Below are positions 5,153-19,898 of a stretch of DNA of 64,000 bases, one piece after another (positions within the stretch are counted from its first letter, which is position 1; every line of letters begins with the position of its first letter). The translations under genes and the position numbers were made by a program. The DNA comes from an uncultured Pseudomonadota bacterium (lineage in GTDB: Bacteria > Pseudomonadota > Alphaproteobacteria > RF32 > CAG-239). The stretch spans positions 808 through 64,807 of the forward strand of contig CACWUA010000009.1 of assembly GCA_902763905.1 (NCBI GenBank), given 5' to 3'. The notes beneath the pieces are model-generated. The model had not been told where the DNA came from and ran no database searches. It was given only the letters and a program-made list of their open reading frames with translations.

Positions 5153-5198
5153 TCCGTTTCAGATAGTCCTTGCGGCTGTTGTTACAGCAAAACTGTGC

Positions 5199-5543
5199 TT
5201 AAAACATACTTCCGTTCCAGCCCCAGAGGTCGGCCGGATGATAGGTAACGTAGACATTTGCGCCCGGAATTCCGTAGTCGCTTTGCAAAATGTCACAAAT
5301 CTCGCCGGTTAAGCCCTGACACGCTGATTTAGATGCCGAACCAAGCAGTCGGATAGCGATGTAAGCACCTTTTCCCAGCTTTTTCTCCGCCATATACAGC
5401 GCTTTATCGTCCTCAATGTTCGCCATAATATAGGCTTTCGGCTTACCGAACGCGGCTGAAACGGCACCGGTCAGCTTCTTTTGCAGGTCATCTTTCTGGC
5501 GCTCGTCCAGTTTAATACTCATTTTTGCTTCAATATATGGCAT
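5199..5543 (-). CDS. MIF-family (macrophage migration inhibitory factor-like) tautomerase
   Basis: 114 aa. Pro directly after the initiator Met. GKPKAYIMANI and C-terminal VYVTYHPADLWGWNGSMF parallel MIF GKPPQYIAVHV and [21 protein letters not shown]. Confidence 0.7.
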   Translation of the reverse strand: MPYIEAKMSIKLDERQKDDLQKKLTGAVSAAFGKPKAYIMANIEDDKALYMAEKKLGKGAYIAIRLLGSASKSACQGLTGEICDILQSDYGIPGANVYVTYHPADLWGWNGSMF

Positions 5544-5732
5544 TTTTTATCTCCTTTATAAAAATAACAGTTGCTTTAATTATCATCGCAAAATGCGAGA
5601 TGTCAAAAAGAAAAAACTTTTGATACAACATATTCATCGCCGGCGAAAAATTTAACGGGTCCTTCCTGACGATTTTTCGTATGCGGGGCCGCAAGCCGCG
5701 CCATTTTTCTAGTGAAACAGGTTTTTGTTTAC

Positions 5733-5836
5733 TGGTCACCCCTTTGCGGAAACCCTTATTCCATAAGGGTTTTGAGCGATTGTGAAAAATTCTGGCTGGT
5801 CACTGGTCACTTCTGGCTGGTCACTTGCCTGGTCAC
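5733..5836 (+). repeat. Cluster of five TGGTCAC heptamers; TCTGGCTGGTCAC occurs twice
   Basis: TGGTCAC at 5733, 5797, 5804, 5818 and 5830. Intergenic. Hairpin AAACCCTTA-ttcca-TAAGGGTTT lies between the first and second copies. Confidence 0.7.
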
Positions 5837-6290
5837 CCCGGTAAAAAATCTAGTAAATAAATATACTTAAGGCATAAAAAAGAGTGGTCAGTTTTACCTT
5901 TCCACTCTATATCAGTTATGCTTATTAAACATAACGAGCTCCTTTCAAGCAACCTTTACCGGAGAAGGTATTGATTGCGAACAATATTATTCTTTGCCTG
6001 ATTCAACAAGCATTCCGTGATAGCACATTGGATAGTAATGTTAATCACATCATTTAAATTGCGAGCCTGAGTATAGCTATAGATAGTGTTACCCCTTGAT
6101 ACCCAAGTCAGCATATTTAACGCTTCCAACAATTTAATCATCTCCTTACTGTTTGTAGGTTAATTGAAACGATGTACCCACATCGTCCCTTCCGGTGATA
6201 GAATACGATAAAAATTTCAACATGTCAAATTCGCAAATATTGTAACCAGGGAAAATATTATTTATTTCTATCTTTAAGATATTTTTTTTA

Positions 6291-6395
6291 CAATTTGCCA
6301 AACAAAAAAGTCACAAATTACCGAACGAAAAAGTCACAATTTGCCGAACGAAAAAGTCACAATTTGCCGAACGAAAAAGTCACAAATGACCGAAT
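6291..6395 (+). repeat. Tandem array, 4.5 copies of a 23-bp unit CAATTTGCCGAACGAAAAAGTCA
   Basis: Units start at 6291, 6314, 6337, 6360 and 6383 (partial). Units 3 and 4 are identical. Confidence 0.9.
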
Positions 6396-7136
6396 CAGAA
6401 TAAAAATAACTGGAAAAACAATATGATATCTTCTTGGGTGGTGATCGACATCTAAATGATAATTTATCGGCGGAAGTGAGAGCAGAAATATCAACGTTTG
6501 AAACATCAATTTCGCCTTTCATAAGTTTTGGTAACAATGTGTCCCGAAGTGCCGCTAGCCGTGTATTTTCTAGAGAATTATTCCATATAAGCCTGTCTAA
6601 TACAGAACATGTATTTTCAAATTTTATCATAATTTCATTTGTAGGGATAGTAACCGGCATATTATACAATGAATCTTTATTCACTGAACCAAAAACAGTT
6701 CCTTCTCCGTTAAAAATATTTAATCTATCTTGAGATGCCCAAATGGTGTAAAGGATAAACGATTGACAATTTTGTTTTGACCGAATTGCACATAACCCTC
6801 TTCCAATACAACAATTATCCATGGCTACATTAAAATCTCCTACAGGTGCTCGAACGCTCATGATTACATCACCTGTTTGGGCCATACGTTTGGGTTCTGT
6901 TGTATATAATCTAACTCTAGGAAATCGGGCTCCAAATTCGGCTCTGCCTTGAAAAAAAATGCAACCGTTTTTTTCTTCATTATAACTACTGCCATTTGGA
7001 GATTGACCCATTATAATTTCTGCAATTTCACCAAGTTTTCCAACTTTCCAATCTTCCGGCATAACTCCGCCGAAAGGTTCAAAATCCACAAACCATGACT
7101 TAAATAGAGCCTGTGCCTGTTGTTCTAAATTATTAT
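6334..7136 (-). CDS. hsdS: Promoterless type I RM specificity (HsdS) half cassette: alternative TRD2 plus conserved regions
   Basis: The translation ..INNNLEQQAQALFKSWFVDFEPFGG..TRD..RLAALRDTLLPKLMKGEIDVSNVDISALTSADKLSF parallels the second half of the full hsdS at 12809-14062. It has no start codon at the conserved-region boundary. The 3' tail of the ORF runs into the 23-bp repeats. Confidence 0.8.
6452..6516 (-). repeat. Inverted repeat IR-C (left copy), partner of 13988-14052
   Basis: Its reverse complement matches 13988-14052 at 62 of 65 positions (counted by eye). Confidence 0.9.
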
Positions 7137-7141
7137 TTATC
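7106..7141 (-). repeat. Inverted repeat IR-M (left copy), partner of 13351-13386
   Basis: Its reverse complement GATAAATAATAATTTAGAACAACAGGCACAGGCTCT matches 13351-13386 at 35 of 36 positions. It overlaps the recombinase stop codon. Confidence 0.9.
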
Positions 7142-8126
7142 CAATGAACTTGCGGTGGGCGAGCTTAACATTACTCTGTTTAACCATTGCGTATTGCAAA
7201 GTTGTGTCAATTCTTGAGTGACCGAGCAATTTTTGAAGCTGTTCTATTGGCATTCCTTTATCAATGGCCATTGTTGCAAGTGTTCGGCGGAATTTATGCG
7301 GATGCACCTTTGGAATATTCAAACGCAATCCAAGCTCACGAAGCCTAACCTCAATTCCGCTAATTTCTAAACGATTATATGGCGATTTTAAGGATACAAA
7401 CAGCGCGGCATTACTATCTGTCCGGCTTTCCAAATAATTCTGTAAATGAATTTTTGTTCTGGCATCAAAATATACTATCCGTTCCTTATCACCTTTCCCA
7501 AATACCACACATTCTCGTTCCGTAAAATTTATGTCCTCGCGATTAAGTAACACCATTTCTCCAACGCGCATTCCGGTAGAGGCTAACATATCAATCATAG
7601 CCAAATCACGTAGATTTCCGCATTCATCACGCATTAGCTCCAACATTTCATCTGAATATGTTTCTTTGATATTGGTGCCGGTTTTAACCTTATGTATCCG
7701 ACGCACCGGACTTTTAATAATATAATTTTCATCTTCAAGCCATGCGAAAAAACTAGATAATATGCGCCGGATATTATCAATAGTTACTCGGCTTGAATTA
7801 TTATTTATTTGATAGTCTGTTAAATAAGTACGTAAATCATCGGTAACAATTTGTTTGATATTTTTATTTACGATTTTCAGCATGTTAGTAATTGTAGCAT
7901 TGTAATATTTTATTGATTTTAGAGAGCATCCCTCAATTTTTTTTGCCGATAGAAATAGTTCAATATATGATGCATTTGATATTTCTGTATCTTCAAAATC
8001 AATTTTTTCCTTGATTTCATAACCATCAAACACCCGTTGCAATGTATCTCTCAATTCAATTAATTGACTGTTATCAATTTTGGTTTGCATTTCCAAAATA
8101 ATTTCATTTATTACTGTATCATTCAT
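7137..8126 (-). CDS. Tyrosine site-specific recombinase (XerC/D-integrase family), probable hsdS invertase
   Basis: 329 aa. Catalytic pattern STGMRVGE (R), HPHKFRRT (H-x-x-R), LLGHSRIDTTLQY (H, Y). It sits between the hsdS cassette and hsdM. Confidence 0.9.
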   Translation of the reverse strand: MNDTVINEIILEMQTKIDNSQLIELRDTLQRVFDGYEIKEKIDFEDTEISNASYIELFLSAKKIEGCSLKSIKYYNATITNMLKIVNKNIKQIVTDDLRTYLTDYQINNNSSRVTIDNIRRILSSFFAWLEDENYIIKSPVRRIHKVKTGTNIKETYSDEMLELMRDECGNLRDLAMIDMLASTGMRVGEMVLLNREDINFTERECVVFGKGDKERIVYFDARTKIHLQNYLESRTDSNAALFVSLKSPYNRLEISGIEVRLRELGLRLNIPKVHPHKFRRTLATMAIDKGMPIEQLQKLLGHSRIDTTLQYAMVKQSNVKLAHRKFIG

Positions 8127-8186
8127 TTTAAGTCTCCATTTTAAGAATTGTTACCGTAGATTCCAGAGTAAATCTTTATATTTATT

Positions 8187-8215
8187 TTGACTCTTAACAC
8201 CATACCGAATATCAT
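8187..8215 (+). promoter_or_regulatory. Candidate sigma70-type promoter for the hsdM operon
   Basis: TTGACT, 17 nt spacer, TATCAT, about 55 nt upstream of the hsdM ATG. Confidence 0.4.
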
Positions 8216-8271
8216 GTAGCAAATGCGTTTATGCGTTAGTTTGTAAAGGTTACAATAAAAAGAGGTCTGAA

Positions 8272-9780
8272 ATGGCAGGAAAAAATAACGCCAATATCGG
8301 TTTTGAAAAGCAAATTTGGGATGCGGCTTGTGAACTTTGGGGACATATTCCGGCGGCGGATTACCGTAAAGTTATCATCGGTCTTATCTTTTTGCGTTAC
8401 ATCTCATTTGCGTTTGAAAAGCGTTATAATCAACTGGTGGCGGAAGGCGATGGTTTTGAGGACGAGAAAGATGCCTACACAATGGAAGGTATATTTTATG
8501 TGCCGGAAGCCGCACGTTGGAGCAAAATTGCTGAAGCCGCTCATACACCGGAAATCGGTATGGTTATAGATGAAGCTATGCGGGCAATAGAAGCCGAAAA
8601 CAAAACGCTCAAAAACGTTCTGCCTAAAAATTATGCCAACCAAGACCTTGATAAACGTGTTTTGGGAAATGTAGTTGACCTGTTTACCAATAATATTGAT
8701 ATGTCGGAAACAGATGAGGATAAAGACCTGCTAGGGCGCACTTATGAATACTGTATCGCCCAGTTTGCCGCATACGAAGGCACCAAAGGCGGTGAATTTT
8801 ACACGCCGTCAAGCATTGTTAAAACCATTGTGGAAGTATTGAAACCGTTTGATAACTGCCGCGTTTATGACCCTTGCTGTGGTTCCGGCGGAATGTTTGT
8901 TCAGTCAGTTAAATTTTTGCAGGCACATGGCGGTAATCGGGATAAAATCTCGGTCTATGGACAAGAATCTAATGCCGATACTTGGAAAATGGCTAAGATG
9001 AATATGGCCATTCGCGGAATTGATGCTGATTTTGGGCCTTATCAAGCCGATACATTTTTTAATGACCTGCACCCGCACGAAAAGTTTGATTTTATTATGG
9101 CAAATCCTCCGTTTAACTTATCCAACTGGGGACAAGACAAGCTCCTTGATGATGCGCGTTGGAAATATGGTACGCCGCCGGCCGGTAATGCCAACTATGC
9201 GTGGATTCAGCACATGATACACCACCTCGCACCGAATGGAAAAATCGGTTTAGTGTTAGCGAACGGTGCGCTTTCTACTCAAACCAGTGGTGAAGGTGAA
9301 ATCCGCAAAAATATCATTGAAGCCGATTTGGTTGAGGGAATTATCGCTCTGCCGCCGCAACTATTTTATAGCGTAACAATTCCGGTAACATTGTGGTTTA
9401 TCAGCAAAAATAAACAACAAAAAGGACGCACTGTATTTATAGATGCGCGTAAAATGGGTTATATGGTCGACCGTAAGCACAGAGATTTTACTGACGAAGA
9501 TATTAAAAAATTGGCGGATACTTTTACGGCATTTCAAAATGGCAAGTTGGAAAATGTCAAAGGTTTTTGTGCGGTGGCAACAACGGCAGAAATTGCGGCA
9601 CAGGATTATATTTTAACCCCTGGACGTTATGTCGGTATTGAGGAGCAGGAAGATGACGGCGAGCCGTTTGAAGAGAAAATGAAACGCCTGACCGGCGAAC
9701 TTTCCGAGATGTTTAAGCAGTCCGACACTCTCCAAAACGAAATCCGCGAAAAACTAAAAGCCATCGGCTGGGAGATTTAG
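8272..9780 (+). CDS. hsdM: Type I RM DNA methyltransferase subunit HsdM
   Basis: 502 aa. N-terminal HsdM domain (EKQIWDAACELWGHIPAADYRKVIIGLIFLRY). AdoMet motif DPCCGSGGMF. Catalytic NPPF. Confidence 0.95.
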   Translation: MAGKNNANIGFEKQIWDAACELWGHIPAADYRKVIIGLIFLRYISFAFEKRYNQLVAEGDGFEDEKDAYTMEGIFYVPEAARWSKIAEAAHTPEIGMVIDEAMRAIEAENKTLKNVLPKNYANQDLDKRVLGNVVDLFTNNIDMSETDEDKDLLGRTYEYCIAQFAAYEGTKGGEFYTPSSIVKTIVEVLKPFDNCRVYDPCCGSGGMFVQSVKFLQAHGGNRDKISVYGQESNADTWKMAKMNMAIRGIDADFGPYQADTFFNDLHPHEKFDFIMANPPFNLSNWGQDKLLDDARWKYGTPPAGNANYAWIQHMIHHLAPNGKIGLVLANGALSTQTSGEGEIRKNIIEADLVEGIIALPPQLFYSVTIPVTLWFISKNKQQKGRTVFIDARKMGYMVDRKHRDFTDEDIKKLADTFTAFQNGKLENVKGFCAVATTAEIAAQDYILTPGRYVGIEEQEDDGEPFEEKMKRLTGELSEMFKQSDTLQNEIREKLKAIGWEI

Positions 9781-9783
9781 TTT

Positions 9784-10770
9784 ATGGTAGAACAACAGAA
9801 AAACATTGCGATTTATCAATCAGCAGACGGAAAAATGCAGATAGATGTTCATCTGCAAGAACAGACTATTTGGCTTTCTCTTGATCAAATTTCATCTTTA
9901 TTTCAAAAGGATAAATCAACAATATCTCGCCATATTAAGAATGTTTTTTTATCAGAAGAATTAGATAAAGAATCAGTTGTTGCAAATTTTGCAACAACTG
10001 CCAAAGATGGCAAAACCTATCAAGTTGATTACTATAATTTAGATATGATAATTTCGGTTGGTTATCGTGTAAATTCAAAAATTGCCACTCAATTTCGCAA
10101 ATGGGCAACTTTCGTCTTAAAACAATACCTTGTGGATGGATACGCTGTCAATGAAAAACGGCTACAGGAGCAAAAATCCAAAGTTGCTCAATTACAAAAT
10201 GCAATCAAACTCTTAAATCGGAGCATAGAGCATCAGGCAGATAATCTAGATGATGCTAAAAAATTAAGTGCCTTAATGGCAGATTTTGCTTCAGGTCTTG
10301 GTTTACTAGATGATTATGATAACAAAACTCTTGATACTAAAGGGAAAACAATCAAACCCGCGGTGGTTATTAAAAAAGAAGAATTTTTGAACGTTATTGA
10401 TAAAATGAAGCCGGAGTTTGGCTCAGACGTTTTTGCAAACCCCAAAGATGAGAGTTTTGATAGCTCAATTAATCAGATTTATCAGACATTCGGAGGACAA
10501 GAATGTTACCCTTCGTTAGAAGAAAAAGCGGCAATGTTGCTCTATTTTCTGGTAAAAAATCACAGCTTTACAGATGGCAACAAACGGATTGGCGCGGCTT
10601 GTTTCCTGTATTTTCTGGATAAAAACGGAATTTTATATCAAAATAATGTACAGATTATTGATAATGCGGCTTTGTTTGCACTCACTGTTTTAATCGCTGA
10701 AAGTAAGCCGGAAGAAAAAGAAATGATGAAACAGGTTATTATCAGCGTATTGAATAAGGAGGAGATTTAA
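9784..10770 (+). CDS. RhuM-like N-terminal domain fused to a Fic/Doc-family domain
   Basis: N-terminus TYQVDYYNLDMIISVGYRVNSKIATQFRKWAT (RhuM-type). C-terminal Doc-type Fic motif HSFTDGNKRIGAA. Confidence 0.8.
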   Translation: MVEQQKNIAIYQSADGKMQIDVHLQEQTIWLSLDQISSLFQKDKSTISRHIKNVFLSEELDKESVVANFATTAKDGKTYQVDYYNLDMIISVGYRVNSKIATQFRKWATFVLKQYLVDGYAVNEKRLQEQKSKVAQLQNAIKLLNRSIEHQADNLDDAKKLSALMADFASGLGLLDDYDNKTLDTKGKTIKPAVVIKKEEFLNVIDKMKPEFGSDVFANPKDESFDSSINQIYQTFGGQECYPSLEEKAAMLLYFLVKNHSFTDGNKRIGAACFLYFLDKNGILYQNNVQIIDNAALFALTVLIAESKPEEKEMMKQVIISVLNKEEI

Positions 10771-11598
10771 ATGCTATATGTTAGGAATTTCTTAAGATGG
10801 TGTTTCCTTACTGTAGTAGTTGGACTATCCTTGTCTTTACTCGGAGCTCACATTTATTACAAACATTTCCAAGCGCCAGAGTTATCATTTATACGTAGAA
10901 CATATGCTATATTCTCTGATGTAAATACTCATAATGCCCATATAGCTCTGTTTATAAATGAAAAACAAGTTAAAAATCTGTATATGACTACTATAAAGAT
11001 AGAAAATACTGGTGGTGTTGTATTAGAGCGTGGAAACTTTTCCGCAGAAATGAATCCATTACGAATAATCGGAGAAAATATAGAATCTGTTTTTATTGAT
11101 GAAAATAATTCTAATTTTAATTCTACAACACAAATTGTGAAAAAAGACGGAGAATTTTTGATTAATTTTAACTGGTTGAATCCTGGGGATTATATAACAA
11201 TAAATGTCTTCCACGAAAACAAAAATTCAAAAATAAATCTAATAGGTAGTTTTGAAAAAATAGGAACTTTAAAAGAAATCTTTATAAAAGATTTAATAGT
11301 GAAGCGTAATTTGCCCCGTGCAATTATTATCACAATCATTGTAATGGTAGGAACGTTATTAATCGTTGGATCAGTTTTTGTTATCTCTAACAAACTATCT
11401 TATGGTGCATTTTTGCTTTCGTTTAAGCAGCAAATAGCATGTGCATATGCAACAGTTCTTTATGAAAATGACAAGAAAAAAAGAACAAAAATCCTCAAAA
11501 AAATTATAAATACAAAAGAAGATAAGAAGCTTCAACAAATAGTAAATGAATGCTATAAGGATACATATAACAAAGAGAAGCCAAATAGGAGAAAATAG
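10771..11598 (+). CDS. Hypothetical two-TM membrane protein (gene B of the RM-embedded cassette)
   Basis: AAGGAGG RBS. The start abuts the Doc-like stop. Hydrophobic helices FLTVVVGLSLSLLGAHIYY and AIIITIIVMVGTLLIVGSVFVI flank a beta-rich segment. K-rich tail. Confidence 0.65.
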   Translation: MLYVRNFLRWCFLTVVVGLSLSLLGAHIYYKHFQAPELSFIRRTYAIFSDVNTHNAHIALFINEKQVKNLYMTTIKIENTGGVVLERGNFSAEMNPLRIIGENIESVFIDENNSNFNSTTQIVKKDGEFLINFNWLNPGDYITINVFHENKNSKINLIGSFEKIGTLKEIFIKDLIVKRNLPRAIIITIIVMVGTLLIVGSVFVISNKLSYGAFLLSFKQQIACAYATVLYENDKKKRTKILKKIINTKEDKKLQQIVNECYKDTYNKEKPNRRK

Positions 11599-11600
11599 AA

Positions 11601-11951
11601 ATGGAAAATAGTATTACATTGAATTCATTTACTGCCGGAGCGGTTGCCGGTATGGTTATTGCGGAGCTTCGTGGCTTCAATAACTATTTAATGAACAATT
11701 TTGATATGCGGCAGGAACGGTATCAAACAGCCATAAAAATATCTGAAAGCATAATCTCTATGCTATCACAGCAACCTTTTGAAAATCGCTCAAAAGAGGA
11801 AATGAAATTTTTGATAGACGTTTATAAAGAGGCTAGAATTCATCGAGATCCTTACGATAAAGACAGATTAGAAAACATCGCATCTTTAATGAAAGCAACA
11901 CTTGATTGGCTGGATGAGCAAAAACAATCGCAGGAGCAACAGCATGACTAG
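11601..11951 (+). CDS. Hypothetical small, mostly helical protein (gene C)
   Basis: 116 aa. AGGAG RBS. The start is 2 nt after the stop of gene B. Confidence 0.55.
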   Translation: MENSITLNSFTAGAVAGMVIAELRGFNNYLMNNFDMRQERYQTAIKISESIISMLSQQPFENRSKEEMKFLIDVYKEARIHRDPYDKDRLENIASLMKATLDWLDEQKQSQEQQHD

Positions 11952-12008
11952 CTGGCAGGAAATTAAATCAGAAGAATTTATTTTTTATAACTGTATGTAA
12001 TAAAGAAA

Positions 12009-12806
12009 GTGACTAAAATGACTGAAAATCAATATGATATTTTTTTATATTTTAAGGAATACATAGATTTATTCTTAAAGACAGTTATTCCGTATCTAGC
12101 TGAACAGACTGTTTCTCTATTAAAAAGTTGGTCATTTATTATTTTATTGGTGTTTTTATGCCTAAAGAAACCCATTATTGATCTTATTAATAAAATTTAT
12201 GAAATTCATTTTTCCAAAGGAAAAATATTTATTCAAAAGCAAGTTGAACAAGAAAAATCAGGGCTGGATACAAATCTTTTAACTACAAATAACGGTATCC
12301 CCCAGACCATCAACACAGGAAATACAGAATTATCACCCAAACTAAACAAAAATAAAAAAGGAATACATTTACCTGCCCTTCCAGATGACAATGTTTTTAA
12401 GGGCGTTTTCAATGATCAAGAAAAAATTATTAAAACAGAACTAACTAAGACTCCTTTCATTAAAGAAGAAGTGCTGATTCGTGAATTAGCTTCTTATCAA
12501 ATTGCATTAGATTATGAGCGAATTTTTAAGGATATGTTTAAGAGTCAAATTGATGCTCTAGAATACATAAATTCAAACGAACAAGGCGTCACAAAAAATG
12601 ATTTATTAAAATTTTATGATAAAGCCAAACAACAATACCCTGTTGCTTATCAAGATTTTTCTTTTGAAAATTGGTTTGCTTTCTTTGATATTCATAATTT
12701 CATCGAGCAAAAAGATAATAAACTTTATCCAACAGAGAAGTCTCAAGCATTCACATATTATATCATCGTTCAAAGACGGTATAATATTTTGTATAAAGGT
12801 CTATAA
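12009..12806 (+). CDS. Hypothetical membrane-anchored protein (gene D)
   Basis: 265 aa (GTG start; an alternative ATG lies at 12018). One hydrophobic helix SWSFIILLVFLCL. Helical C-terminal domain. The stop is 2 nt before the hsdS ATG. Confidence 0.6.
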   Translation: MTKMTENQYDIFLYFKEYIDLFLKTVIPYLAEQTVSLLKSWSFIILLVFLCLKKPIIDLINKIYEIHFSKGKIFIQKQVEQEKSGLDTNLLTTNNGIPQTINTGNTELSPKLNKNKKGIHLPALPDDNVFKGVFNDQEKIIKTELTKTPFIKEEVLIRELASYQIALDYERIFKDMFKSQIDALEYINSNEQGVTKNDLLKFYDKAKQQYPVAYQDFSFENWFAFFDIHNFIEQKDNKLYPTEKSQAFTYYIIVQRRYNILYKGL

Positions 12807-12808
12807 AT

Positions 12809-14062
12809 ATGACTAAATGGCGGGAAGTTAAATTAGGAGATATTTGTCTCATTATCGATGGGGATAGAGGTAAAAATTACCCAAGAGAAAATGAATTTTC
12901 AAGAGATGGATATTGTTTATTTTTAAATACAAAAAATGTTCCTAATATCAAATTTGATTTTTCAGAATGTGTTTTCATATCAAAAGATAAAGATGCACTT
13001 TTACGTAAAGGAAAACTGAAATTTGAGGATATTGTTGTAACAACTCGTGGTACATTAGCTAATTTTGCTTATTACACAAGAGAGTGTATATACAGTAATA
13101 TTAGGATAAATTCAGGTATGGTTATCCTACGAAATGAAAATCAAAATTTATATACTCCTTATTTGTATCATTTTTTGATGTCGAAAAATTTTAAACAGCA
13201 AGTAAGCTCTTTTGCAACAGGCTCTGCACAACCACAACTACCAATTAAGGATATGAAGAACATTTTGATATCATTACCACCTTTTGAGGTTCAGAAGAAG
13301 ATTGCGGGGGTGTTGGGTGCGCTGGATGATAAAATTGAGCTGAATAATAAGATAAATAATAATTTAGAACAACAGGCTCAGGCTCTTTATGTAAATAATA
13401 TAGAACTGTATAAGGAAAGAAATATCAAAGTTGAAGATATTGTAATAACTGCTAACACCGGTGCGGACGCTATACAAAAGGCTCCTATAGTTGATTACGA
13501 TACAGGAGTAAAGTGTGTAAGAGTTGGCGACATGTCAAATAAACGGAGCTATTCTGATTGGGGATATGCTAAAGTAACTGATGACGTATTTTCTCAGTAT
13601 CAATTAAAAAAAGATGATATAATTGTTACTAGAACTGCATCATTAGGACTAAACACAATCATTTCTAAAAATTTAGATGCAGTTTATAATAATGGTCTTA
13701 TCCGGCTAACCATAAATAAAGACGTAATAGTTCCTTTGCTTGTATATAGACAATTTCAGACGGATGATTTTAAGAATTACATATCAAAAATAGAAGGAGA
13801 AACATCCGTGCGACCTAATATGAAAATAAACTATTTATTGCAATATTCTTTTGCCGTAATGAATAAAGAAAAACAAAAGGAACTTATTAAAGTGCTTGAA
13901 CCTCTGTGGAATAAACAAGAACAATTAATAGAAGAAAACGCCAGACTGGCGGCGATACGGGATACGTTGTTGCCGAAACTCATGAGTGGCGAAATTGATG
14001 TTTCAAACGTGGATATTTCGGCTCTCACTTCCACCGATAAATTATCATTTAGTGGGGAGTAA
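12809..14062 (+). CDS. hsdS: Type I RM specificity subunit HsdS (full length: TRD1, central conserved region, TRD2, C-terminal conserved region)
   Basis: 417 aa. Central FEVQKKIAGVLGALDDKIELNNKINNNLEQQAQALY and C-terminal RLAAIRDTLLPKLMSGEIDVSN conserved helices. Confidence 0.9.
   Translation: MTKWREVKLGDICLIIDGDRGKNYPRENEFSRDGYCLFLNTKNVPNIKFDFSECVFISKDKDALLRKGKLKFEDIVVTTRGTLANFAYYTRECIYSNIRINSGMVILRNENQNLYTPYLYHFLMSKNFKQQVSSFATGSAQPQLPIKDMKNILISLPPFEVQKKIAGVLGALDDKIELNNKINNNLEQQAQALYVNNIELYKERNIKVEDIVITANTGADAIQKAPIVDYDTGVKCVRVGDMSNKRSYSDWGYAKVTDDVFSQYQLKKDDIIVTRTASLGLNTIISKNLDAVYNNGLIRLTINKDVIVPLLVYRQFQTDDFKNYISKIEGETSVRPNMKINYLLQYSFAVMNKEKQKELIKVLEPLWNKQEQLIEENARLAAIRDTLLPKLMSGEIDVSNVDISALTSTDKLSFSGE
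13351..13386 (+). repeat. Inverted repeat IR-M (right copy) inside the hsdS central conserved region
   Basis: See 7106-7141. Confidence 0.9.
13988..14052 (+). repeat. Inverted repeat IR-C (right copy) inside the hsdS C-terminal conserved region
   Basis: See 6452-6516. Confidence 0.9.
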
Positions 14063-14065
14063 AAC

Positions 14066-14539
14066 ATGGATTGGGCAAGTTGGATTAATGTAGCTTTATC
14101 GGGAGCAATGTTATGGTTAACCATTGCCATACTCAAGCTTAATAAAACTATGACTAAAATAGCAGAAGATGATAAACTAGAAAAAACTGGTCATGATTTA
14201 TCAATAACATTACCAACATTGTATCTTGGCAAAAATGAAAATACAGGAGTTTTAAATAATTTTTGCATTATAAATCATAAAAATAAAATGGAAGCCATTT
14301 ATCGTATATATGCTAAAGAACAAGGAAATGATAAAGAACTTGGTTTTTGGATTGCTGATAAAGAACCGATTATGATTTCCCCTTATAGTTGTTCTTATGT
14401 AACTAAGAATGTTACTCCGTCCCTAAAAATGTTTGATATAGATAAAATAGAGTTATATGCTATAACTAATGATTGTACTGTCAAACTTAATAAAAACATT
14501 GATTGCTTTAATAAACCTATGGAAGCGAAAAAAGAGTAA
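14066..14539 (+). CDS. Hypothetical single-TM protein (gene E)
   Basis: 157 aa. GGGGAG RBS. The start is 3 nt after the hsdS stop. N-terminal helix INVALSGAMLWLTIAIL followed by a beta-rich domain. Confidence 0.6.
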   Translation: MDWASWINVALSGAMLWLTIAILKLNKTMTKIAEDDKLEKTGHDLSITLPTLYLGKNENTGVLNNFCIINHKNKMEAIYRIYAKEQGNDKELGFWIADKEPIMISPYSCSYVTKNVTPSLKMFDIDKIELYAITNDCTVKLNKNIDCFNKPMEAKKE

Positions 14540-14630
14540 TATTTATGCGTAGCAAAATTGATGTTGACAAGGTAAAGATATAAGAATTAAAAATATAAGT
14601 AACATTTAATATAAGCAAAGAGAGGAAAAG

Positions 14631-15374
14631 ATGTTTTTGAATGATACTATATTACCTATGTTGGCTGTCATAGTTACAGGATATATATCTATGATTTATA
14701 CGTTACTGATATTTTTAAGAAAAGGAAGAGAACGAAAAAAAATAATAGATAAGTATTTAGACTCTGTTAAACATCTTAATAGAGATGATGCTTTAGCCTT
14801 TTTAGAAAAAATAGATAATAGATACTATAGTAAAACATCATCACAAAAAAAGCTAGAAGATATTACAGCAAAAAGTATATATGAAAATTACAGATTAGCT
14901 TCAGAAAAAGAAGCTATTCAGTGTAATTTTTTTAGGACCTTATTAATTTCTACAATTGTCATTTTTACAATCTTAATTATGACATTGCAGTCTGTATTTT
15001 TCATAAATGATATAACTGTTTTGGCTTTGGCAAATAGAACTCTTATAGTGCTTCCATTTTTAGTTTTAATCTTATTTGCGGCAAGAGAGGCTTCTAGACA
15101 TAGAAAATCTTTTATTATTAATAGGCAAAAATTTTTAGACTTAAATACAATTGACGAATATATTAAGGGATTTTCTGAAAAAGATAAAATAGCAGTAAAA
15201 AAAGATTTGTGCAGACATTTTTTTAATCATAAAGAATTTGATTATAAATGTAGAGAGGAATTACTATCTAGAAATCTTGTAAATGTTATAGAGAAGATAA
15301 ATGCTAATAGCAATGATGCCATGGAAAAAATATTAAAAACGATTAATCAAACATCTTCGAACAAAGGAGCATAA
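14631..15374 (+). CDS. Hypothetical multi-TM protein (gene F)
   Basis: 247 aa. AGAGAGG RBS. Helices ILPMLAVIVTGYISMIYTLLIFL, LLISTIVIFTILIMTLQSVFFI and LIVLPFLVLILFAA. The stop is 3 nt before the hsdR ATG. Confidence 0.6.
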   Translation: MFLNDTILPMLAVIVTGYISMIYTLLIFLRKGRERKKIIDKYLDSVKHLNRDDALAFLEKIDNRYYSKTSSQKKLEDITAKSIYENYRLASEKEAIQCNFFRTLLISTIVIFTILIMTLQSVFFINDITVLALANRTLIVLPFLVLILFAAREASRHRKSFIINRQKFLDLNTIDEYIKGFSEKDKIAVKKDLCRHFFNHKEFDYKCREELLSRNLVNVIEKINANSNDAMEKILKTINQTSSNKGA

Positions 15375-15377
15375 CTC

Positions 15378-18300
15378 ATGACATACACAAATCCGGTGAA
15401 TGAAGAAGCGTATGAAAACTCGATTATAGAGCTGTTTCAAGAACTCGGCTATACGCATGTTTATGGGCCGGATGTGGAAGATAGAGATTTTACTTCGCCG
15501 CTTTATGAGCCGGTGCTGATAAATGCTCTCCACCAAATCAATCCGAAATTGCCGGAGGAAGCGATAAATGAGGCTCTGTTTAAGCTCAAAAACTTTGAAA
15601 ATGCCGAACTGACGCAGAAAAACGCGTTGTTTATGGATTATTTGCAAAACGGCATCACTGTCCATTATACCGAAAAAGGCGAACCTCGCGATACACTGGT
15701 TTATTTGATTGATTATGAAAAGCCGGACAATAATTCATTTATTGTTGCCAACCAATGGACATTTGTTGAAAATAGTGAAAAACGTCCGGACGTATTGTTA
15801 TTTATTAACGGTTTGCCACTGGTATTGATGGAACTGAAATCGCCTTCACGCGAAGAAACTGATGCCTCCGAAGCATATCGCCAAATTCAGAATTACAAGC
15901 ATGAAATACCATCAATGTTTGTTTATAATGCTATTTGCGTTATGAGTGATTTGGCGGTATCTAAAGCCGGAACGATAACATCTGACGAAACTCGCTTTAT
16001 GGAGTGGAAGACGGTTGACGGTTCTTATGAAAATACCAAATATGCCCAGTTCGATACATTTTTTAACGGTATTTTTGAAAAGTCGCGCCTGCTTGATATT
16101 TTGAAAAACTTTATTTGCTTTTCTAACGAAAACAAAGGAGCAGCAAAGATTTTAGCTGGCTACCACCAATATTTCGCGGTTAAAAAAGCGATTGAATCAA
16201 CCAAACACGCGACACAAACTGACGGTAAAGGCGGTGTATTCTGGCATACACAAGGGAGCGGAAAGTCGCTTTCTATGGTGTTTTACGCGCATTTGTTACA
16301 AAGTGCATTAAACAGCCCGACAATAGTTGTCATTACTGACCGTAACGATTTGGATGACCAACTGTATACGCAGTTTTCTAAATGTAAAGACTTTCTGCGC
16401 CAAGAACCGGTGCAGGCTACCAGTCGCGCTCATTTGAAACAGCTTTTGGATGGTATCAAAGCCAACGGTATTTTCTTTACCACAATGCAGAAATTTGAGG
16501 AATCACCGGAACCGTTGTCAGAGCGTCGTAATATTATCGTAATGGCGGATGAGGCACACCGCGGGCAGTATGGCTTAAGCGAAAAGATAGATAAAGACGG
16601 AAATATCAAAGTCGGTACAGCGCGAATTATTCGTAATTCTCTGCCAAACGCAACATATATTGGTTTTACCGGAACGCCGCTTTCTCTTGATGACCGCAAC
16701 ACGCGAGAGGTATTTGGCGATTATATCGATATTTATGATATGACACAAGCGGTGGAAGATGGTGCAACACGTCCGGTTTATTATGAAAGCCGCGTGATAA
16801 AACTTCACTTAAAGCCGGAGATTTTGCAACTGATTGATGCTGAATATGATTTAATGGCGCAAAATGCCGATCCGGAAGTTATTGAAAAAAGCAAAAAACA
16901 GCTTGGGCAGATGGAAACTATTTTGAGCGATGACGACACAATCAATTCGCTTGTCTGCGATATTTTGGATCACTACGAGAACTATCGCGAGAATTTATTG
17001 ACAGGTAAAGCCATGATTGTGGCTTATTCTCGACCAATTGCTCTAAAAATTTATCATCGGATTTTGGAGCTTCGTCCGGCATGGAAGAATAAAGTTGCGG
17101 TGGTTATGACTTCGGATAATAAAGATCCGGAAGATTGGCGTGCCATTATCGGTAATAAATCGCATAAAGAGGAATTGGCTCGTAAATTTAAGGACAATTC
17201 GGATCCTTTGAAAATTGCAATTGTCGTTGATATGTGGTTGACCGGCTTTGATGTGCCGTCACTTTCTACAATGTATGTTTATAAGCCGATGGAAGGTCAT
17301 AATCTGATGCAGGCGATTGCTCGTGTTAATCGTGTGTTTGAAGATAAAGAAGGCGGCTTAGTGGTCGATTATATTGGCATTGCAAGTGCTTTGAAAAAGG
17401 CTATGAATGACTATACCATCCGCGATAGAAAGAACTACGGCAACATGGACATTGCCACCACCGCATTTAACAAATTTAAGGAAAAATTGCAGGTCTGCCG
17501 CGATTTGTTGCATGGTTTTGATTATAGCGAATTTGCGACCGGAACGAATTTAGTCAGAGCTAAGTTAATCAGCGGTGCGGCAAACTTTATTATCGATAGA
17601 GAGAAAAATAAAGAAAAGGATGCCTTTATTAAGCAAGCTCTCATGTTGCATCAAGCACTGTCGCTTTGCTCATCCATTGTTGAAGAAGGATTGCGTATTG
17701 AGGCGGCATTTATTGAAGCTGTTAGGATTATGATTTTGCGCTTTACCGAAAGCGGTGGTCACAAGAAAATATCATTACCGGAAATGAATAAGCGTATCAA
17801 TGAATTGCTGGAAAAAAGCATAAAGAGCGATGGTGTTATCAATCTGTTTTCGGATATAAAAGAAGAATTCTCTCTGTTTGATCCGAAATTTTTGGAAGAA
17901 ATATCCAAGATGAAAGAGAAAAATTTGGCGGTGGAATTGTTGAAAAAGTTAATAGCAGAGCAAATTTCAATCTATCGCCACACAAATGTTGTTCGCTCCG
18001 AAAAATTCAGCGAAATGATACAAGAAGCAATGAATCGTTATCTTAACGGTATGCTGACAAACGAACAAGTTATTGAAGAATTGCTTAATTTGGCAAAACA
18101 AATCGCGTCAGCACAAAAAGAAGGTGAAGATTTAGGACTTAATGCAGAGGAAGCCGCATTTTATGATGCATTAACCAAACCAGAAGCTGTCAAAGATTTT
18201 TATGAAAATGACGAATTAATTGCTATAACAAAAGAACTTACAGAAACTTTACGCAAAAACAAAACAATTGACTTTCAAAAACGCGAACCAGCACGAGCTA

Positions 18301-18425
18301 AAATGCGCATGATTGTTAGAAAATTGCTTAAAAAATATAAATATCCTCCGGAAGGAGTGGAAGATGCTGTCCAAACAGTAATGACGCAGTGCGAATTGTG
18401 GGCAGATAATGTAATGGCTGTATAA
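15378..18425 (+). CDS. hsdR: Type I RM restriction endonuclease/helicase subunit HsdR
   Basis: 1015 aa. Walker A HTQGSGKS. DEAH box MADEAHRGQYG. Helicase C-terminal motifs. Confidence 0.95.
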   Translation: MTYTNPVNEEAYENSIIELFQELGYTHVYGPDVEDRDFTSPLYEPVLINALHQINPKLPEEAINEALFKLKNFENAELTQKNALFMDYLQNGITVHYTEKGEPRDTLVYLIDYEKPDNNSFIVANQWTFVENSEKRPDVLLFINGLPLVLMELKSPSREETDASEAYRQIQNYKHEIPSMFVYNAICVMSDLAVSKAGTITSDETRFMEWKTVDGSYENTKYAQFDTFFNGIFEKSRLLDILKNFICFSNENKGAAKILAGYHQYFAVKKAIESTKHATQTDGKGGVFWHTQGSGKSLSMVFYAHLLQSALNSPTIVVITDRNDLDDQLYTQFSKCKDFLRQEPVQATSRAHLKQLLDGIKANGIFFTTMQKFEESPEPLSERRNIIVMADEAHRGQYGLSEKIDKDGNIKVGTARIIRNSLPNATYIGFTGTPLSLDDRNTREVFGDYIDIYDMTQAVEDGATRPVYYESRVIKLHLKPEILQLIDAEYDLMAQNADPEVIEKSKKQLGQMETILSDDDTINSLVCDILDHYENYRENLLTGKAMIVAYSRPIALKIYHRILELRPAWKNKVAVVMTSDNKDPEDWRAIIGNKSHKEELARKFKDNSDPLKIAIVVDMWLTGFDVPSLSTMYVYKPMEGHNLMQAIARVNRVFEDKEGGLVVDYIGIASALKKAMNDYTIRDRKNYGNMDIATTAFNKFKEKLQVCRDLLHGFDYSEFATGTNLVRAKLISGAANFIIDREKNKEKDAFIKQALMLHQALSLCSSIVEEGLRIEAAFIEAVRIMILRFTESGGHKKISLPEMNKRINELLEKSIKSDGVINLFSDIKEEFSLFDPKFLEEISKMKEKNLAVELLKKLIAEQISIYRHTNVVRSEKFSEMIQEAMNRYLNGMLTNEQVIEELLNLAKQIASAQKEGEDLGLNAEEAAFYDALTKPEAVKDFYENDELIAITKELTETLRKNKTIDFQKREPARAKMRMIVRKLLKKYKYPPEGVEDAVQTVMTQCELWADNVMAV

Positions 18426-18883
18426 TGATCAAAGTTTTGTTTGTATGTTTGGGAAATATTTGTCGGTCGCCGATGGCGGATTTTGTGTTTAAACAAATGG
18501 TCGCCGCAAAGGGGCTGTCGGAGCAGTTTTATATTGATTCTGCCGCCACCGAGCGCTTTAACGAAATGTGCCACGCCGGCATTCATCACGGCACCCGCGA
18601 CAAGCTGAAAGCCATGCAAATTCCGTTCGAGGAGCATTATTCGCGGCAAATTCGCCCGCGCGACTACGTGTATTTCGACTACATTATCGCGATGGACGAT
18701 AGTAATATTGATGACATTTTGGAGATTGTCGGACCGGATACGGAGCGCAAAATTTATCGCCTGCTTGATTTTACGGACCATCCGCGCAATATCCGCGATC
18801 CATGGTATACCGGCAATTTTGACGAGAGCTATGATGATATCAGCGAGGGTTGTCAGGCGTTTTTGGAATATTTAAATCTATAA
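18425..18883 (+). CDS. Low-molecular-weight protein-tyrosine phosphatase
   Basis: P-loop VLFVCLGNICRSPMA (CX5R-S) and the DPWY acid loop. The ATG overlaps the hsdR TAA by 1 nt. Confidence 0.85.
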   Translation: MIKVLFVCLGNICRSPMADFVFKQMVAAKGLSEQFYIDSAATERFNEMCHAGIHHGTRDKLKAMQIPFEEHYSRQIRPRDYVYFDYIIAMDDSNIDDILEIVGPDTERKIYRLLDFTDHPRNIRDPWYTGNFDESYDDISEGCQAFLEYLNL

Positions 18884-18974
18884 TAGAAAAAATTTTTAAT
18901 ATTCCTTATTGCATTTTTAGTATTTAGCATATTAAAATACATCCTGTACTTAACATCATTGATAAGGTTGGACT

Positions 18975-19898
18975 ATGTCAGATTTAAAGCTGTTTAATAT
19001 CAAAAGTGGCAAAGCTGTTGAGCTCAATAGCTTAATTGTTAGCAAAGAGCGTAATATTCAAAGGATTGTAGAAGAAAATAGCGATATACTATTGAATGTA
19101 CGCTTTTTGAAAAGTGAGCATGCTTTCAAAGCAGAAGATGGACATAATGCTCGTATTGATACTTTAGGTCTTGATGAAAATAATTGTCCTGTGATTATTG
19201 AATATAAGAGAGATGGCAAAGATACGGTTATCAATCAAGGTTTATTTTACATGGATTGGTTGGTAAAGCACCCCAAGGATTTTGCTTGGTTAGTATTAGA
19301 AAAGTTTGGGAAGAAAGTTGCTGATGATATCGACTGGTCTCAACCACGTTTAATTTGTATTGCACAAGATTTTAGTCGTTATGATGAATTTGCAATCAAA
19401 CAGATGCAAAAAAATATTGATTTAATGCGCTATCGTATATATGAGAATGACCTCTTACTATTTGAATTAGTCAATAGTTCTAGCGACGAAAATAATAAGT
19501 CTACTACTAACAGTATGTTAAAAAAAGAACATAGCACCAATAAAAAAGTTAAAACGGTAATAGATAAATTAGATGCGGCATCTTCAGATATTAAGTCCCT
19601 ATATAATGAATTGGATGATTATCTCCTGTCTTTAGGGGATGATGTTCAAAAGAAGGTTCTAATGCATTATATTGCCTATAGGCGGTTGAAAAATTTTGCC
19701 TCTGTGCAATTTAATAAAAACGAAATACAAATATATGTCAATGTTGATGCGGAAACAATTAATTTAGAAAAAGGTTTTACGCGTGACGTTCGTAATCTTG
19801 GGCATCTTGGAACAGGAAAATTGGAAATAACAATTAAGAATTTAGCGGAATTAGAAAAAGCAAAACCTTTGATAGAGAAAAGTTTAACTCGATCATGA
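18975..19898 (+). CDS. PD-(D/E)xK (NucS/DUF91-like) N-terminal domain protein with a DUF5655-like C-terminal half
   Basis: RIDTLGLDENNCPVIIEYKR gives a D...E-x-K pattern. The C-terminal HYIAYRRLKNFASVQFNKNEIQIYVNV pattern was recalled from memory. Confidence 0.5.
   Translation: MSDLKLFNIKSGKAVELNSLIVSKERNIQRIVEENSDILLNVRFLKSEHAFKAEDGHNARIDTLGLDENNCPVIIEYKRDGKDTVINQGLFYMDWLVKHPKDFAWLVLEKFGKKVADDIDWSQPRLICIAQDFSRYDEFAIKQMQKNIDLMRYRIYENDLLLFELVNSSSDENNKSTTNSMLKKEHSTNKKVKTVIDKLDAASSDIKSLYNELDDYLLSLGDDVQKKVLMHYIAYRRLKNFASVQFNKNEIQIYVNVDAETINLEKGFTRDVRNLGHLGTGKLEITIKNLAELEKAKPLIEKSLTRS

Follow-up and report, generated by a model that had tools for sequence, protein, structure and literature searches.

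Can a type I restriction-modification (R-M) locus change its specificity by an inversion that also carries the methylase gene away from the nuclease gene? The question is raised by a 64,000-nucleotide (nt) stretch of DNA, hereafter the window, from an uncultured alphaproteobacterium (contig CACWUA010000009.1 of assembly GCA_902763905.1, positions 808 to 64,807). In it an expressed hsdS specificity gene and a silent half hsdS cassette on the opposite strand enclose hsdM and a tyrosine recombinase gene, and hsdR lies outside. We consider it likely that the locus is an hsdS specificity switch of the four-site family to which SsuCC20p of Streptococcus suis belongs, with a permuted gene order; that the strain currently switches we infer from the sequence. 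The type of switch is known, and what is new is the architecture: an unusually large piece predicted to flip (6-7.6 kb), with the methylase gene, the recombinase and four passengers on it and hsdR left behind.

The initial annotation had reported two pairs of inverted repeats (IR) shared by the expressed hsdS and the half cassette, and its figures agree with ours. A repeat search and a recount both gave 35/36 identical positions for the inner pair, IR-M (7106-7141 versus 13351-13386; 36 nt, 97%), and a recount gave 62/65 for the outer pair, IR-C (6452-6516 versus 13988-14052). IR-C extends further, to 6452-6571 and 13933-14052 (120 nt at 84%). With 27 nt (IR-M) and 23 nt (IR-C), the longest perfect runs exceed the survey threshold of at least 20 bp at 100% identity in opposite orientation. 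The half cassette does lie in inverted orientation, as had been proposed, and matches Methylase_S (4e-12). The inner pair encodes the central conserved HsdS helix (KINNNLEQQAQAL) and the outer pair the C-terminal helix, so named in the following list of repeats and target recognition domains (TRDs).

6334-6451, minus strand: tail outside the cassette, which adds 39 HsdS residues if the cassette is read leftwards and enters a 23-nt tandem repeat
6452-6571, minus strand: left arm of IR-C, C-terminal conserved helix of the silent cassette
6572-7105, minus strand: silent alternative TRD2 (t2'), Methylase_S 4e-12, unlike the active TRD2
7106-7141, minus strand: left arm of IR-M, with core site 2
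13351-13386, plus strand: right arm of IR-M, with core site 3
13387-13932, plus strand: active TRD2 (T2)
13933-14052, plus strand: right arm of IR-C, with core site 4

T2 and t2' have no detectable similarity, so specificity would change if one were exchanged for the other. The source genome (1.53 Mb in 71 contigs, 95% complete) contains three TRDs only, one TRD1 and two TRD2s. Since the two TRD2s are unrelated and the genome holds no further TRD, the locus combines one TRD1 with two alternative TRD2s.

A 14-bp core, TAAATNATNATTTA, is found exactly four times in the 64-kb window, each time at a cassette border, where 0.11 occurrences are expected and 0/100 shuffles reach four. The four copies, with their plus-strand sequences, are as follows.

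6453-6466: core site 1 (C, outer), TAAATGATAATTTA
7126-7139: core site 2 (M, inner), TAAATTATTATTTA
13353-13366: core site 3 (M, inner), TAAATAATAATTTA
14038-14051: core site 4 (C, outer), TAAATTATCATTTA

Site 2 is the exact reverse complement of site 3 (type M, with AATA at the centre), as site 1 is of site 4 (type C, with GATA at the centre). Every TRD2 cassette has an M site at one border and a C site at the other, and orientation alternates along all four sites. The homology of the repeat arms begins 2 bases ahead of the M core and ends 1 base past the C core, which identifies the cores as the cassette borders. The recombinase gene described earlier as abutting the half cassette is an intact Xer-like gene (7137-8126, minus strand), and its stop codon, TAA at 7139-7137, forms the first three bases of core site 2. 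All catalytic residues are present, as read from an alignment to XerC-like (4a8e) and XerA (5hxy) structures. The gene falls within the 10 kb of hsdS in which the inverton survey looks for an invertase gene, and hsdR, hsdM and hsdS, which the survey wants complete within one locus, all are so by their Pfam matches. The genes of the locus are arranged as follows.

7141-6334, minus strand: half hsdS (open reading frame (ORF) 6334-7089; Methylase_S 4e-12, Pfam)
7137-8126, minus strand: Xer-like tyrosine recombinase, catalytic R187, K211, H277, R280, H303 and Y312 present
8127-8271: intergenic region of 145 bp between the divergent recombinase and hsdM genes, presumably with both promoters
8272-9780, plus strand: hsdM (N6_Mtase 2e-109, HsdM_N)
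9784-10770, plus strand: RhuM/Fic-Doc gene, PADLOC candidate PDC-S23
10771-12806, plus strand: passenger genes B (membrane), C (small, soluble) and D (membrane), no family match
12809-14062, plus strand: expressed hsdS (Methylase_S 4e-25)
12809-13350, plus strand: TRD1 of the expressed hsdS, end part of the invertible segment
14066-15374, plus strand: genes E and F (membrane proteins), no family match
15378-18425, plus strand: hsdR (HSDR_N, SWI2_SNF2, T1RH-like_C)

From this arrangement a mechanism can be proposed in which the Xer-like recombinase of the locus would exchange M with M and C with C, with no cross-reaction between the two kinds. The geometry of the inversion at IR-M, put earlier at about 6.2 kb, holds: the segment 7140-13352 comprises the recombinase gene, the divergent promoter region, hsdM, the Fic gene, genes B, C and D, and TRD1. 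Its inversion would leave E, F and hsdR in place, again as had been claimed, and the proposed joining of TRD1 to the alternative TRD2 is in frame when carried out in silico, giving an HsdS of 449 aa with an unrelated TRD2 and, by prediction, a changed specificity. The outer repeat provides a second switch, of 7.6 kb, which the initial annotation did not contain, and four predicted states follow.

State A, as sequenced: HsdS TRD1+T2, 417 aa; operon hsdM...hsdS-E-F-hsdR
State B, M x M exchange, flipping 6.2 kb: HsdS TRD1+t2', 449 aa, read leftwards
State C, C x C exchange, flipping about 7.6 kb between cores (7.4 kb simulated at the repeat edges): HsdS TRD1+T2, 453 aa, read leftwards
State D, both exchanges: HsdS TRD1+t2', 413 aa; operon restored

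HsdS is open, in frame and full-length in all four in-silico states, and in states B and C it carries the 39-residue tail from the left flank. The spare cassette and the recombinase gene lie upstream of hsdM and divergent from it, and for this reason each single exchange flips a large segment. After either one, hsdM, the passenger genes and hsdS would point away from E, F and hsdR, which in the predicted states B and C are downstream of the recombinase gene and the orphan cassette and not of hsdM-hsdS; such a layout may alter hsdR expression. A C x C exchange would leave the specificity as it was. The two exchanges together would swap TRD2 and restore the operon without leaving hsdM flipped, and the four states would amount to two specificities in each of two operon layouts. 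The two differentiated kinds of site appear to keep both switches separate.

The repeats of SsuCC20p are TAAATCATCATTTA and TAAATGATGATTTA, and its switching needs the xerD of the locus (Roodsant et al. 2023, PMC10790761). In both systems a XerD-like recombinase is encoded in the locus and two TRD cassettes each lie between opposed 14-bp near-palindromic sites. The site itself is nearly the same, TAAATGATGATTTA against TAAATGATAATTTA here (13/14 identical; PMC10790761), and the four sites of the window (6453, 7126, 13353, 14038), like those of SsuCC20p, flank each swappable TRD in opposite orientations. The four sites of SsuCC20p are identical, whereas the inner and outer sites of the window differ by one base. 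The gene order of SsuCC20p itself we took from the text of the paper. In its compact relatives the sites span about 3 kb with hsdM outside, whereas in the window the spare cassette and the recombinase gene are upstream of and divergent from hsdM, and the 7.6-kb span carries hsdM and four further genes.

The family context of the recombinase places this arrangement among its kin. Hundreds of proteins from Bacillota, Treponema, Listeria and other groups are related to this recombinase at 68-76% identity. Its identity to the recombinases found at about 150 hsdS-shufflon loci is 69-76%, and to that of the nearest streptococcal locus sampled 69%. The family norm is four alternating cores of the form TAAA(C/T)NNNN(A/G)TTTA, and exactly four sites (relaxed A[TC] pattern) were present in 49/83 loci of at least 12 kb. 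About 100 of the 160 loci fetched have the compact order hsdM - hsdS - recombinase - hsdS' - hsdR, the order that Huang et al. (PMC7672463) gave for E. faecalis T8. In 70 ordinary four-site loci the sites span 2.8-4.7 kb (median 3.0 kb) with hsdM outside them, in keeping with the earlier description of an hsdM-flipping inversion as less usual, and all four cores are identical in 67 of these 70.

The recombinase and hsdM genes are divergent, and hsdM consequently lies inside the sites, in nine loci (L001, L003, L081-L086 and L089). A tenth, G065 (L195), comes from the window's own genus. The recombinases of the nine loci form one clade with that of the window (Shimodaira-Hasegawa-like approximate likelihood ratio test, SH-aLRT, 90; 0/500 label shuffles as clustered), L082 having been omitted from the tree because of a frameshift. 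The hosts are close relatives of the window (gut Alphaproteobacteria), Gastranaerophilales and a rumen metagenome-assembled genome (MAG). Five complete loci of the divergent type, the window included, span 5.0-7.6 kb, and in 5/5 of them M and C differ at position 6 (A versus G), a split between inner and outer sites seen in 3/70 ordinary loci. Since the divergent-type loci are kin, the layout and the M/C split may go back to a single evolutionary event. The layout of the window recurs, with other TRDs and other passenger genes, in L082 and G065/L195, which come from the window's genus or close by. Two further species of the genus (L196, G068:C3; L197, G030:C1) carry the same hsdM-Fic-...-hsdS-...-hsdR system without the recombinase gene and the spare cassette, which indicates that the switch module is an add-on upstream of hsdM.

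Relatives also bear on whether such loci switch. Locus L086, from the rumen MAG, was assembled flipped, with hsdS and hsdM on the minus strand and the recombinase gene, the cassette and hsdR on the plus strand, one M x M exchange away from the layout of the window. Its specificity gene (6525-8294) consists of two adjacent ORFs, one of 198 aa (TRD1 and the central helix, then a stop) and one of 390 aa (a full two-TRD hsdS), the latter with an extra partial copy of the inner repeat of 24 nt (7192-7215). In L081, with a recombinase 95% and an HsdM 99% identical to those of the window, the window's active T2 is found at 96.7% nucleotide identity in the silent slot beside the recombinase gene, the position that a history like that leading to state D would predict. 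Three Gastranaerophilales MAG contigs (L083, L084 and L085; 3.2 kb) consist of the M-to-M segment alone, TRD1-hsdM-recombinase. The M core stands exactly at both ends of L083 and L085, and in L084 the cores are at positions 2 and 3241 of 3266, within 1 and 12 nt of the ends. L003 begins and L001 ends at an M border, and one same-genus contig begins 22 nt ahead of the outer repeat. Since the repeats are shorter than the usual final assembly k-mers, contig breaks at the cores suggest mixed junctions in those samples, from inversion or from co-existing cassette variants.

In L082 both IR-M copies share substitutions that neither window copy has, a case of concerted evolution of the repeat copies within a genome. 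The same-genus systems that have no recombinase module served as controls: G068 and G030 lack the C site, and G030 also lacks the M core yet keeps the protein motif. The view of the repeats as mere conserved coding sequence was rejected, since one same-genus hsdS retains the motif in its protein although the core is missing, as is the outer site.

Rather unlikely, in our judgement, is a recombinase that only swaps cassettes, in a coordinated double event from A to D, so that the hsdM segment is never stably inverted and the operon is in practice not restructured. The assemblies of the window, L082 and G065, in which hsdM-hsdS is co-oriented with hsdR, would agree with it, and the difference between the window and L081 (T2 active versus silent) is the outcome of an A/D swap. 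The single-exchange layout assembled in L086 argues the other way. Moreover, a synapse formed by tyrosine recombinases joins a single pair of sites, so that single-inversion intermediates must exist, at least briefly. A locus frozen since the days of an ancestral shufflon, with the spare half-cassette and the recombinase gene as leftovers, the repeats persisting as conserved HsdS helices and no switching now, seems to us quite improbable: the window recombinase is intact in reading frame and catalytic residues, within each pair of cores one is the exact reverse complement of the other, repeat copies evolve in concert within a genome, and assemblies break exactly at the cores. Such a relic would account for the lack of an alternative junction among the joints listed from the contigs of four runs, and for the frameshifted recombinase of one close relative, L082. 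It would also draw on the fact that the inner repeat encodes a conserved KINNNLEQQ helix, partly widely conserved; G030, however, keeps this motif without the core, showing that protein constraint does not force the core.

That the recombinase is instead the integrase of a mobile restriction island, serving insertion and excision rather than inversion, we hold to be very improbable. As such an island would have it, some species of the genus carry the restriction locus and others do not, and a tandem repeat lies at its left edge. Yet about 150 relatives have the gene placed between hsdS cassettes, its stop codon falling in a cassette-border site, the protein has a Xer-like two-domain build, the repeat search gave no direct-repeat att pair flanking the island, and same-genus loci carry the same restriction genes without a recombinase. 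We rejected the integrase role on this family context.

Several observations weigh against an hsdS switch in current use. No strand-changing joint was present among the 15 of 23 joints listed for contigs of the probable source run and three others (about 10x), and contigs of the former bridge both M sites in the reference orientation. Contigs at about 10x cannot show a minor orientation, so the absence of strand-changing joints among those listed is not evidence against switching. All three complete loci from the genus or near it (window, L082, G065) were assembled coupled, so flipped layouts may be rare, transient or selected against. L086 is distant (76% recombinase identity) and its flipped layout could be fixed, and a mixture of strains that differ in their cassettes could also explain why contigs end at M sites. 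In L082, the closest complete relative, the recombinase gene (10001-10989) is split by a frameshift near 10180-10243, so that either the assembly is wrong there or the locus is locked. When 50 genomes of the genus were searched with TRD1 and the active TRD2, the conserved helices were the only matches, and no sister strain with the predicted TRD1+t2' fusion turned up. On balance, the specificity switch is real, well-formed and probably active.

A bolder form of this reading, an interlock, is speculative and in our opinion unlikely. In it, an M x M exchange would always uncouple hsdR, E and F, the new motif would be methylated while little nuclease is made, and a neutral C x C exchange would then re-arm the system; the base that distinguishes M from C throughout the clade would keep the switches independent and forbid M x C exchanges, by which hsdM would be lost or scrambled.

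In the probable source run (X1), the best-matching public run and a bovine gut metagenome, the contig that carries T2 (13444-14052) has a depth of 3.9, against 7.8-11.6 for its neighbours. The breaks are at 13444-13466 and exactly at 14052, so that the contig stops one base past the C core. As an inversion cannot lower the depth of a cassette, the low depth of T2 points to a second variant with a different TRD2, which probably co-exists in the same sample.

Other inverting type I systems differ from the window in what they move. To our knowledge, only the specificity gene is rebuilt in the switchable type I systems described. These include SpnD39III-SpnIII of S. pneumoniae with CreX/PsrA, and systems of E. 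faecalis, T. denticola and B. fragilis (Huang et al. 2020, PMC7672463; Atack et al. 2020, PMC7394358). As in the window, such epigenetic invertons have opposed hsdS sequences and inverted repeats in the conserved regions of hsdS, their locus encodes a tyrosine invertase, and a single expressed hsdS is reassembled from the cassettes. Unlike in the window, their invertible DNA measures 1.2-3.5 kb and holds hsdS parts and the invertase gene only, and the operon structure is kept (PMC7672463; PMC7394358). Milman et al. (PMC9881135) had already pointed out RhuM and Fic genes within type I loci that can invert.

In the hsd1 and hsd2 loci of Mycoplasma pulmonis, two inverted hsdS genes reportedly flank hsdM and hsdR. 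If that layout is right, inversions there also flip core hsd genes, as they would in the window. The recombinase of M. pulmonis, HvsR, is encoded elsewhere, acts in trans and also serves the vsa locus. In the window, by contrast, the recombinase gene and hsdM are inside the invertible DNA, hsdR is outside it and passenger genes stand on both sides, where M. pulmonis is said to have hsdM and hsdR inside. Some arrangements of the M. pulmonis hsd loci lose R-M activity (PMC4948785).

Switchable type I systems have been studied as epigenetic phase-variation devices and as moving phage targets. In the clade of the window the same recombinase family would flip the methylase gene together with its promoter and with passenger genes that probably serve in defence. 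The main interest of the locus is that a change of specificity is tied to the coupling of hsdR with hsdM-hsdS, and both would change together. Were the flipped layouts real and HsdR lowered in them, they would offer a natural answer to how a cell survives a change of restriction specificity; were they merely fleeting intermediates, the locus would be just another hsdS shufflon. The locus also lends itself to a clean test of how one base of difference in a recombinase core keeps two inversion switches apart.

Genes E, F and hsdR (14066-18425) are outside the invertible DNA and coupled to hsdS in the sequenced state, with gaps of 3 nt between hsdS and E, 91 nt between E and F, and 3 nt between F and hsdR. 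A scan for promoters and terminators gave 39 promoter-like sites against 43.7 expected and is uninformative on an hsdR promoter. The region between the recombinase and hsdM genes contains a single sigma-70-like match at 8187-8215 (plus strand), a consensus match only, in a scan whose overall yield does not exceed that of shuffles. Nothing of relevance came out of Rfam and tRNA scans of the region. Downstream (window 18425-19898), the hsdR stop codon is overlapped by a gene for a low-molecular-weight tyrosine phosphatase, which is conserved beside hsdR in G065 and G068; a PADLOC PDC-S18/DUF5655 gene comes next.

Among named relatives, the closest to the source genome are MAGs from the gut that bear the label Alphaproteobacteria or 'Azospirillum sp.'. 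On its left side the restriction locus is bordered by a 23-nt unit in about five copies (6290-6404). The flank at 5190-6371 is 92-95% identical in three other species of the genus, and its right part (6000-6371) 97-99%. Their matches stop inside the 23-nt repeat, and their contigs continue with other DNA beyond it, which makes the repeat part of the conserved flank and marks the start of a variable restriction island. Within that island, the genes between hsdM and hsdS (9784-12806) and between hsdS and hsdR (14066-15374) differ between relatives: L082 shows single ORFs there, 475 and 499 aa long, G065 retains the Fic gene and gene C and nothing else, and a sheep-gut strain (X4 contigs) is without 9780-11576. 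The two intervals are swappable cargo slots.

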